Assembly (NCBI RefSeq): GCF_006345805.1
Contig: NW_021833100.1
Location: forward strand, 1-59,453
Direction of reading: 5' to 3'
From: Octopus sinensis
Lineage: Eukaryota
Length of the DNA: 59,453 nucleotides
The translations under genes were made by a program, and so were the position numbers. Each line of letters opens with the position of its first letter. The first letter of the stretch is position 1. Below the pieces are notes generated by a model. The model saw only the letters and a program-made list of their open reading frames with translations. It did no database searches and was not told the DNA's origin. Below, piece by piece: positions 47,788 to 51,440 of this stretch.

Positions 47788-47791
<4 letters not shown>

Positions 47792-50700
47792 AAAGATAAA
47801 TGCGATACAATAAAATTAATTATAATCGCCGGTGTACCAGTACACGCCATATATTATACATATATCATTACATTCAAGGCGAAGAGTGCACTAGATACAC
47901 AATAGCTGGATAAATTTAGTGAGATGAAAATTAAAAACTTTTACAAACTTAACTTTTCTTATACTGCAGTTTCGCCAAATTCAGTAATAAAAATAGTATT
48001 TATTTACTCAGGCTGGCTCTTCAGTAAGATTCCTGTTAATGATGGGAAGACCATATCAATAGACCCATGTGCGTCTATCGAAATGCTCTTTCTAAACTAT
48101 TCAAAACACTGCGCAGACTCAGAACAAACCCGACAAAATAGGGGATTGTGGTATATCGTCTAACGGTCAGAAATTTATCGAGAGAATATGTAAACAAAGA
48201 TAAATGCGATACAATAAAATTAATTATAATCGCCGGTGTACCAGTACACGCCATATATTATACATATATCATTACATTCAAGCGAAGAGTGCACTAGATA
48301 CACAATAGCTGGATAAATTTAGCGAGATGAAAATTAAAAATTTTACAAACTTAACTTTTCTCTTATACTGCAGTTTCGCCAATTTCAGTAATAAAAATAG
48401 TATTATTTACTCAGGCTGGCTCTTCAGTAAGATTCCTGTTAAGATGGGAAGACCATATCAATAGACCCATGTGCGTCTATCGAAATGCTCTTTCTAACTA
48501 TTCAAACCACTGCGTAGACTCAGAACAAACCCGACAAAATAGGGGATTGTGGTATATCGTCTAACGGTCAGAAATTTATCGAGAGAGAGAATATGTAACA
48601 AAGATAAATGCGATACAATAAAATTAATTATTAATCGCCGGTGTACCAGTACACGCCTATATTATACATATATCATTACATTCAAGCGAAGAGTGCACTT
48701 AGATACACAATAGCGGGATAAATTTAGCGAGATGAAAATTAAAAACTTTTACAAACTTAACTTTTCTTATACTGCAGTTTCGCCAAATTCAGTAATAAAA
48801 TGTATTTATTTACTCAGGCTGGCTCTTCAGTAAGATTCTGTAATGATGGGAACACATATCAATAGACCCATGTGCGTCTATCGAGAATGCTCTTTCTAAA
48901 CTATTCAAAACACTGCGCAGACTCAGAACAAACCCGACAAAATAGGGGATTGTGGTATATCGTCTAACGGTCAGAAATTTATCGAGAGAATATGTAAACA
49001 AAGATAAATGCGATACAATAAATTAGTATAATCGCCGGTGTACCAGTACACGCCATATATTATACATATCATCATTCACAGCAAGCGAAGAGTGCACTAG
49101 ATACACAATAGCTGGATAAATTTAGTGAGATGAAAATTAAAAACTTTTACAAACTTAACTTTTCTTATACTGCAGTTTCGCCAAAAGTAATAAAAATAGT
49201 ATTTATTTACTCAGGCTGGCTCTTCAGTAAGATTCCTGTTAATGATGGAAGACCAATCCAATAGACCCAGTGCGGCTATCGAAATGCTCTTTCTAAACTA
49301 TCAAAACATGCGCAGGCTCAGAACAAACCCGACAAAATAGGGGATTGTGGTATATCGTCTAACGGTCAGAAATTATCGAGAGAATATGTAAACAAAGATA
49401 AATGCGATACAATAAAATTAATTATAGTCCCGGTGTACCAGTACACGCCATATATTATACATATATCATTACATTCAAGGCGAAGAGTGCACTAGATACA
49501 CAATAGCTGGATAAATTTAGTGAGATGAAAATTGAAAACTTTTACAAACTTAACTTTTCTTATACTGCAGTTTCGCCAATTCAGTAAAAAATAGTATTTA
49601 TTTACTCAGGCTGGCTCTTCAGTAAGATTCCTGTTAATGAGGGAAGACCATATCAATAGACCCATGTGCGTCTATCGAAATGCTCTTTCTAAACTATTCA
49701 AAACACTGCGCAGACTCAGAACAAACCCGACAAAATAGGGGATTGTGGTATATCGTCTAACGGTCAAAATTTATCGAGAGAATATGTAAACAAAGATAAA
49801 TGCGATACAATAAAATTAATTATAATCGCCGGTGTACCATACACGCCATATATTATACATATATCATTACATTCAAGGCGAAGAGTGCACTAGATACACA
49901 TTAGCTGGATAAATTTAGTGAGATGAAAATTAAAAACTTTTACAAACTTAACTTTTCTTATACTGCAGTTTCGCCAAATTCAATAATAAAAATAGTATTT
50001 ATTTACTCAGGCTGGCTCTTCAGTAAGATTCCTGTTAATGATGGGAAGACCATATCAATAGACCCATGTGCGTCTATCGAAATGCTCTTTCTAAACTATT
50101 CAAAACATTGCGCAGACTCAGAACAAACCCGACAAAATAGGGGATTGTGGTATATCGTCTAACGGTCAGAAATTTATCGAGAGAATATGTAAACAAAGAT
50201 AAATGCGATACAATAAAATTAATTATAATCGCCGGTGTACCAGTACACGCCATATATTATACATATATCATTACATTCAAGGCAAAGAGTGCACTAGATA
50301 CACAATAGCTGGATAAATTTAGTGAGATGAAAATTAAAAACTTTTACAAACTTAACTTTTCTTATACTGCAGTTTCGCCAAATTCAGTAATAAAAATAGT
50401 ATTTATTTACTCAGGCTGGCTCTTTAGTAAGATTCCTGTTAATGATGGGAAGACCATATCAATAGACCCATGTGCGTCTATCGAAATGCTCTTTCTAAAC
50501 TATTCAAAACACTGCGCAGACTCAGAACAAACCCGACAAAATAGGGGATTGTGGTATATCGTCTAACGGTCAGAAATTATCGAGAGAATATGTAAACAAA
50601 GATAAATGCGATACAATAAAATTATTATAATCGCCGGTGTACCAGTACACGCCATATATATACATATATCATTACATTCAAAGCGAAGAGTGCACTAGAT

Positions 50701-51440
50701 ACACAATAGCTGGATAAATTTAGTGAGATGAAAATTAAAAACTTTTACAAACTTAACTTTTCTTATACTGCAGTTTCGCCAAATTCAGTAATAAAAATAG
50801 TATTTATTTACTCAGGCTGGCTCTTCAGTAAGATTCCTGTTAATGATGGGAAGACCATATCAATAGACCCATGTGCGTCTATCGAAATGCTCTTTCTAAA
50901 CTATTCAAAACATTGCGCAGACTCAGAACAAACCGACAAAATAGGGGATTGTGGTATATCGTCTAACGGTCAGAAATTTATCGAGAGAATATGTAAACAA
51001 AGATAAATGCGATACAATAAAATTAATTATAATCGCCGGTGTACCAGTACACGCCATATTATTATACATATATCATTACATTCAAGGCAAAGAGTGCACT
51101 AGATACACAATAGCTGGATAAATTTAGTGAGATGAAAATTAAAAACTTTTACAAACTTAACTTTTCTTATACTGCAGTTTCGCCAAATTCAGTAATAAAA
51201 ATAGTATTTATTTACTGAGGCTGGCTCTTTAGTAAGATTCCTGTTAATGATGGGAGACCATATCAATAGACCCATGTGCGTCTATCGAAATGCTCTTTCT
51301 AAACATTCAAAAACACTGCGCAGACTCAGAACAAACCCGACAAAATAGGGGATTGTGGTATATCGTCTAACGGTCAGAAATTTATCGAGAGAATATGTAA
51401 ACAAAGATAAATGCGATACAATAAAATTAATTATAACGCC
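47788..51440 (-). mobile_element. Tandem array of nine 404-bp non-coding units plus a ~40-bp partial; candidate non-LTR retrozyme
   Basis: Unit starts (aaacaaagataaatgcg) at about 47788, 48192, 48597, 48996, 49390, 49788, 50191, 50594, 50995 and 51399; each full unit holds a minus-strand hammerhead motif. Confidence 0.8.
47957..48029 (-). ncRNA. Type I hammerhead ribozyme (unit 1; repeated in every unit)
   Basis: UCUUA-CUGAAGA-GCCA-[36 nt AU-rich stem extension]-UGGC-GAAAC-UGCA-GUA-UAAGA: complete core, 5-bp stem I, 4-bp base of stem II, palindromic ACUGCAGU stem III. Confidence 0.85.

Follow-up and report, generated by a model that had tools for sequence, protein, structure and literature searches.

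Does a tandem array of hammerhead motifs in the genome of Octopus sinensis represent a retrozyme, and by which route could its RNA have returned to the genome? In the excerpts of PMC7229834 and PMC7761336, the retrozyme cycle is demonstrated as far as the RNA circle, with the return to the genome and the enzyme left open. In this study, we analysed a stretch of 59,453 nt of contig NW_021833100.1, hereafter the window, for which an initial annotation had proposed an array of this kind.

The 404-bp unit and its hammerhead motif

Analysis with TRF revealed a tandem array at 47782–51440 (period 404, 9.1 copies, 95% matches), and BLAST resolved nine full units of 404 bp from position 47788, followed by 43 nt. 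Together with a descriptor scan of the minus strand, this bore out the proposed 404-bp hammerhead array at 47788–51440, which belongs to subfamily A and whose RNA sense is the minus strand. The units are arranged plainly head to tail without an LTR structure and have a GC content of about 0.34. As proposed, there is no credible ORF in the unit, the longest ATG-initiated frames encoding 59 aa in the RNA sense and 79 aa in antisense, and no tRNA was found in it. The adjoining (TA)n, also annotated before, was located at 47748–47788. Elsewhere in the window, we noted a MITE-like element (47496–47690) that is about 85% self-complementary over 190 bp and has relatives in seven of the loci fetched, and a 300-bp tandem repeat (26591–27459, 2.9 copies) with (TTA)n between its units.

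Type I hammerheads were scored by their core (CUGANGA, GAAA and NUH), three helices and an open stem I. The full fold was detected on the minus strand in seven of nine units, with predicted cleavage after 47962, 48366, 48770, 49168, 49563, 49961 and 50766. Units 1 to 6 thus carry consecutive intact hammerheads (47956–48030, 48360–48433, 48764–48836, 49162–49233, 49557–49628 and 49955–50029), as does unit 8 (50760–50834), and for unit 1 the scan agreed with the annotated complete core and cleavage between 47962 and 47961. Units 7 (50358–50434) and 9 (51163–51239) harbor G5A (at 50425 and 51230, respectively), the core reading CUAAAGA, and their ribozymes are presumably dead. The claim of a hammerhead in each unit therefore stands for the seven intact cores and falls for units 7 and 9. 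Stem I comprises 5 bp (UCUUA/UAAGA), stem II 4–5 bp with a long extension, and stem III 2 bp with a UGCA loop. The motif is of the canonical invertebrate type, with a 2-bp stem III and a palindromic tetraloop, and not of the minimal type of Penelope-like elements (PLEs).

In 20,000 dinucleotide shuffles of the unit, the loose descriptor matched twice and the strict one never, and no hammerhead model of Rfam matched within 46000–53000 at E ≤ 1. The minimum free energy structure predicted for the motif differs from the active fold, and neither its energy (z −1.3) nor that of the circle (z −1.1) was significant, so that folding energy provides no evidence. In the predicted monomer fold, UACUG pairs with CAGUA, which would block the core. 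The stem III palindrome ACUGCAGU is predicted to form a duplex with itself (−13.1 kcal/mol) and no hairpin at all; such self-pairing would fit activity as a dimer, following a model in the excerpt of PMC4209133.

The 12 invariant core nucleotides took only 2 of 264 distinct changes, with 7.8 expected (P about 0.016), and array-fixed changes inside the motif hit N7 and loop III. Among 27 distinct rows, sibling families included, the first pair of stem I is A-U in 18 and G-C in 9, and the fifth is kept in only 10. Double-sided changes occur at four pairs (0/500 shuffles), the rows being kin to each other and retrieved with a pattern of fixed core and stem III; the compensatory conservation of stems that the annotation had named as a check was thus observed. 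Core changes and covariation speak for selection on the hammerhead motif, not for catalysis.

Non-LTR retrozymes are recognized by units of about 150–450 bp, a GC content under 50% and a hammerhead in at least two consecutive units, and the repeat agrees in size, GC content, hammerheads, non-coding nature and dispersal. On sequence grounds, the 404-bp family adds a new member to the animal non-LTR retrozymes, and the annotated identity as a retrozyme is upheld by these features, by stem compensation and by the dispersal and Penelope-like insertion anatomy of its arrays described below.

Dispersed insertions, their junctions and sibling families

A DNA search of the species' own genome (2.72 Gb), in which the 40 best of 671 candidates were scored, revealed at least 157 matches, mostly 92–100% identical and spread over many chromosome-scale contigs. 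Exact patterns detected at least 160 (TA)n fixed junctions and at least 192 internal unit junctions genome-wide, with none for the reversed controls, so that the dispersed arrays which the annotation had suggested looking for do exist. The family is young.

After fetching 39 other loci, 40 score-selected loci including the window could be compared. In 38 of them the array starts at one and the same base (47782–47797, plus strand, in the window) and in two it starts two bases further in, while the other end lies anywhere. TA repeats occur at the fixed end in 39/40 loci (target microsatellite at 47748–47787 in the window) and near the variable end in 35/40. The fixed end lies 174 nt 3' of the cleavage site and is not the ribozyme cut. 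On the plus strand the unit reads ATATGT/AAAC there, and the target's ATATAT replaces the unit's own ATATGT; this start stretch is predicted to be unpaired in the circular monomer and is kept in sibling families. One fixed and one ragged end are the footprint of target-primed reverse transcription (TPRT), so that the minus strand would be the RNA and the fixed junction the putative start of the reverse transcriptase (RT).

Twenty further loci were picked in list order from the junction matches and have the fixed end by construction. Their insertions ranged from 29 to over 3017 bp (median 155), with nine longer than 174 nt, seven longer than one unit and 13 shorter than one unit. At the variable 5' end in the window, the last bases fold back briefly around a run of C (51425–51459) and are joined to the right-hand flank copied in inverted orientation (from 53540 to about 53410; copy at 51455–51570, minus strand). 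Beyond the insertion follows a 1.8-kb (TA)n tract (51614–53427), and with (TA)n flanking both ends, any target-site duplication would be masked. Inverted pieces at 5' ends, which are a hallmark of PLEs, were also found in sibling loci, and template switches at 5' junctions in the window, L021 and L081. Altogether, internal RT start, 5' truncation, inverted 5' pieces and microsatellite bias are all present in the family, and this Penelope-like anatomy supports the earlier proposal that the array may be the integrated product of rolling-circle reverse transcription by a Penelope-like enzyme.

Related hammerheads were sought with a pattern excluding the 404-bp family, which resulted in 63 hits, 30 of which were fetched. 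Four families were distinguished, with siblings 76–88% identical over the whole unit. Of the 30 sibling ends, 18 lay at the homologous site, nine at a second site, likewise UA-rich and about 100 nt beyond the cut, and three otherwise; for the 404-bp family, one pattern for a second start site gave no matches. At L042:3130–3890, an inverted, partially tandem pair of a sibling family (74% identical) adjoins a younger array, which is inserted into the (TA)n end of the pair.

Other hammerhead repeats were noted as well. A 200-bp element between (TA)n tracts is present twice in the window (13320–13522, minus strand; 9160–9363, plus strand), with a minimal hammerhead that has an extra base after A9 and ACGU where stem III would stand, the second copy also showing U4C; it is either a PLE terminus or a short non-autonomous family. 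A 750-bp non-coding repeat at 57573–58315 (minus strand), of which L027 contains a partial tandem copy, ends in TTTTTACTGTTTACA followed by (TA)n like the retrozyme families; no hammerhead was detected in it, and it may use the same enzyme. Unrelated non-coding elements with hammerheads, tandem or inverted, lie at (TA)n in L066:5750–7200, L062:560–720 and L067:340–450; the genome seems rich in hammerhead-bearing (TA)n families.

Penelope-like elements and the candidate enzyme

A search for GIY-YIG domains, in which 150 of 5029 candidates were scored, revealed at least 147 matches. Fifteen of the 20 loci fetched belonged to a single PLE family, five of them with open frames of 781 aa that encode an RT, a CX2-5CxxC linker and GIY-YIG. 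Thus, autonomous PLEs with open RT and GIY-YIG frames (775–781 aa) co-occur in the genome. By the definition in the excerpt of PMC8557442, this young family appears Neptune-like. At least 11 of its 15 copies end in TTTTTAC(A/G)AA followed by (TA)n, and in two copies a second TA junction follows after about another 40 nt. Upstream, the family also has an overlapping frame that reaches up to 479 aa (L064:474–4177) and, in the 3' UTR about 70 nt before the end (L060–L076), a hammerhead-like motif with a UUGAUAA core, which we take to be U3-A8 in place of C3-G8.

The PLE remnants reported for the window were confirmed as the broken GIY-YIG end of a PLE ORF at about 58295–58890 (minus strand). In the older family of this remnant, with at least 150 matches among 9829 candidates, a hammerhead that shares the AC-NNNN-GU stem III is located about 55 nt ahead of the (TA)n end; this hammerhead has an AAUU loop and the U4C core variant.

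Shared ends with autonomous PLEs, another check that had been suggested, were absent: BLASTN of the unit against the 20 GIY-YIG loci, and of the four family units against 20 more loci and the window remnant, gave no terminus shared with any of the 40 PLE loci, which represent four to five families, and a covariance model run over all 40 reached a best E of 0.097. A 46-nt match to the window remnant (E about 0.03) was rejected as chance, being absent from the 20 related copies, and a matching 3' end beside the remnant proved to be part of a separate inserted repeat. No ORF of an autonomous PLE was found in the unit or joined in sense to the arrays.

The larger RT remnants in the window, which we take to be R4/Dong-like non-LTR elements (24200–26000, 6795–7187, 7336–7878 and 7996–8337, all minus strand), comprise an RT, a zinc finger and an RPD-type endonuclease. 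They were rejected as mobilisers, since they sit at (TTA)n and not at (TA)n. Mariner transposase remnants were seen at 55382–55684 (minus strand, HTH_48 match) and, by eye, at 38154–38474 (plus strand).

Template, proposed mechanism and comparison with known systems

In 60 loci we counted 157 passes across the cut position, and 0/60 ends fell at q170–179. A cleaved linear monomer would allow at most 174 nt. Together with the insertions longer than this and no excess of ends at the cut, these passes point to a template continuous across the cut, which would be either a circle, a multimer left uncleaved or a junction formed by jumping.

Nineteen arrays with at least three full units contained 21 variants that are fixed throughout their array (12 distinct, seven private to one array), as well as 73 singletons, sequencing errors among them; the unit alignment left out L112, L123 and L129. 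Subfamilies A and B differ at six sites, with no mixing within arrays in the 40 loci tabulated. Partial variants numbered 15 in six of the 19 arrays, each of them private, and of the variants confined to first units only one recurs. Periodic partial variants have a period of 2 in the window (units 6–7/8–9) and of 4 in L022 (four units); a dimer or tetramer circle behind them was rejected, as the period does not span the whole array. The variant patterns favour a monomer bottleneck. Partial variants, which speak against a purely one-step origin, are best read as later DNA-level duplication or mis-assembly.

We consider it probable that the family is a non-autonomous retrozyme moved by a Penelope-like RT-endonuclease through a ligated RNA circle and primed on (TA)n. 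Arrays would be transcribed on the hammerhead strand, for which the sequencing runs give a weak hint. None is recorded as RNA; 14 were guessed to be RNA and four analysed. Three guessed-RNA runs from three studies each contained one cyclic contig of 434 nt (cyclic 404 nt, depth 9–22) equal to the subfamily A unit, a kind of contig that also arises from tandem RNA or DNA; a large run whose type is not recorded gave 276 variant contigs. The cyclic contigs thus weakly hint at transcription from the youngest subfamily, A. The hammerhead, a motif that seems to be under selection, would cut the transcript at GUA, probably as a dimer via the ACUGCAGU palindrome, to yield 404-nt monomers, which a host ligase, as described in the literature, would close into circles. 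The endonuclease would nick (TA)n, and the ...ATAT 3' end of the target would pair with the single-stranded UA-rich RNA 174 nt past the cut and prime cDNA synthesis there, consistent with the observed junction. Judged by insertion anatomy, the RT would then cross the cleavage position, circle 0.07 to 11 times and stop anywhere, the 5' end being joined by TA microhomology or template switch. Some arrays would gain DNA-level or assembly duplications later (units 6–7/8–9 in the window).

The fixed end in 40/40 loci, the variable other end, passes across the cut and fixed variants favour a circle as template. Rather more tentatively, at somewhat less than even confidence, we suggest that the four families form a currently active, self-propagating circle lineage in which each insertion corresponds to one rolling-circle TPRT event by a Penelope-like RT annealing (TA)n to the UA-rich site. 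A PLE primed on (TA)n could also have copied an uncleaved linear multimer, with unequal exchange of DNA lengthening and homogenising the arrays and the hammerhead acting elsewhere or later. Unprocessed RNA is indeed the main substrate of PAc in vitro (PMC11167929, excerpt), non-autonomous Chlamys elements lie head to tail (PMC8557442, excerpt), periodic partial variants occur in 6/19 arrays and run X8 also contains a contig spanning a unit–(TA)n junction. However, 0/15 partial variants are common to different loci and no A/B mosaic appears in the 19 arrays; stepwise growth should leave many partial variants, but the older subfamily B has one in 12 arrays of 4–11 units, and we consider this account rather unlikely.

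Improbable, in our judgement, is a cleaved linear monomer on which the RT jumps from the 5' end to the 3' end of the same or another molecule without a covalent circle. A monomer bottleneck would fit it equally well, and the template switches mentioned above and four insertions ending at the cleavage position are in its favour; yet such stops are not in excess over the six at a control TA-like position genome-wide, few indels occur at the cut across 128 units, and mixed haplotypes, which jumps between molecules should produce, were not observed. For an ordinary satellite or locally amplified PLE terminus spread at the DNA level, with the hammerhead as a relic, one can cite the local amplification by unequal crossover suggested in bioRxiv 10.64898/2026.07.22.740005 and the presence of some DNA-level duplication. 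This is very improbable given an identical start base (within 2 nt) at 40/40 dispersed loci, 13 of 20 insertions shorter than one unit, a core depleted of changes and compensatory stem changes.

If a circle lineage is indeed active, these loci would provide direct genomic evidence for a step only proposed in PMC7229834 (excerpt) and bioRxiv 10.64898/2026.07.22.740005, with RNA, target and candidate enzyme within one genome. Given a young family with an RT start defined to a single base, a known target and open PLE frames in the same genome, the RNA-to-DNA step can be rebuilt in vitro, and the family provides an unusually clean test of this unproven step. If an RT copies a small circle repeatedly into (TA)n, this would inform both the mechanism of PLEs and the birth of satellites.

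In the literature searched (mainly open papers, without Repbase or Dfam), we found no description of the 404-bp family or of such junction evidence; hammerheads counted in a squid genome number 235 and the word ribozyme is absent from an octopus repeat annotation, in the excerpts of these sources. With EN+ PLEs, namely Poseidon PAc (PMC11167929, excerpt) as well as Neptune and Naiad (PMC8557442, excerpt), the 404-bp family and its siblings share internal RT start, AT-rich or microsatellite targets, partial tandems, inverted 5' pieces, a hammerhead upstream of the 3' end and, in the sibling families, two alternative 3' ends. These ends recall the PLE 'tail', which was traced to internal initiation (PMC11167929, excerpt). 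In contrast to EN+ PLEs, the 404-bp family lacks an ORF and reaches up to 11 whole units, and while the start of PAc is not homologous to its target (PMC11167929, excerpt), that of the family lies on a UA-rich stretch matching (TA)n. In vitro, a lizard PLE mostly used unprocessed RNA and did not need its own hammerhead (PMC11167929, excerpt). Non-autonomous Chlamys elements such as MRC1 (PMC8557442, excerpt) are likewise mobilised by PLEs and frequently present in multiple head-to-tail copies, but share 3' sequence with an autonomous partner, which was not found for the 404-bp family in the PLE loci searched; most Chlamys lack canonical hammerheads in that excerpt, whereas the hammerhead of the 404-bp family is conserved.

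The closest likeness is to animal non-LTR retrozymes (PMC7229834, excerpt; bioRxiv 10.64898/2026.07.22.740005), which also consist of tandem non-coding units of a few hundred bp (350–390 bp in mussel; PMC7229834, excerpt) with low GC content, a single type I hammerhead in each unit, whose palindromic stem III is weak, and co-existing PLEs. RNA circles are shown for the coral, mussel and axolotl retrozymes (PMC7229834, excerpt), whereas those of the 404-bp family are proposed, and eight of nine Xenopus retrozyme dimers did not cleave (bioRxiv 10.64898/2026.07.22.740005). The same preprint ties retrozymes to pLTRs by homology, of which we found none for the 404-bp family in the 40 PLE loci searched. 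RT copying of circles was proposed in both sources without such junction data, and in the 404-bp family the insertion ends are resolved. The kind of element is already described (PMC7229834, excerpt; bioRxiv 10.64898/2026.07.22.740005), and what is new in this case is the insertion anatomy, with its fixed internal start, (TA)n target and variable 5' end.
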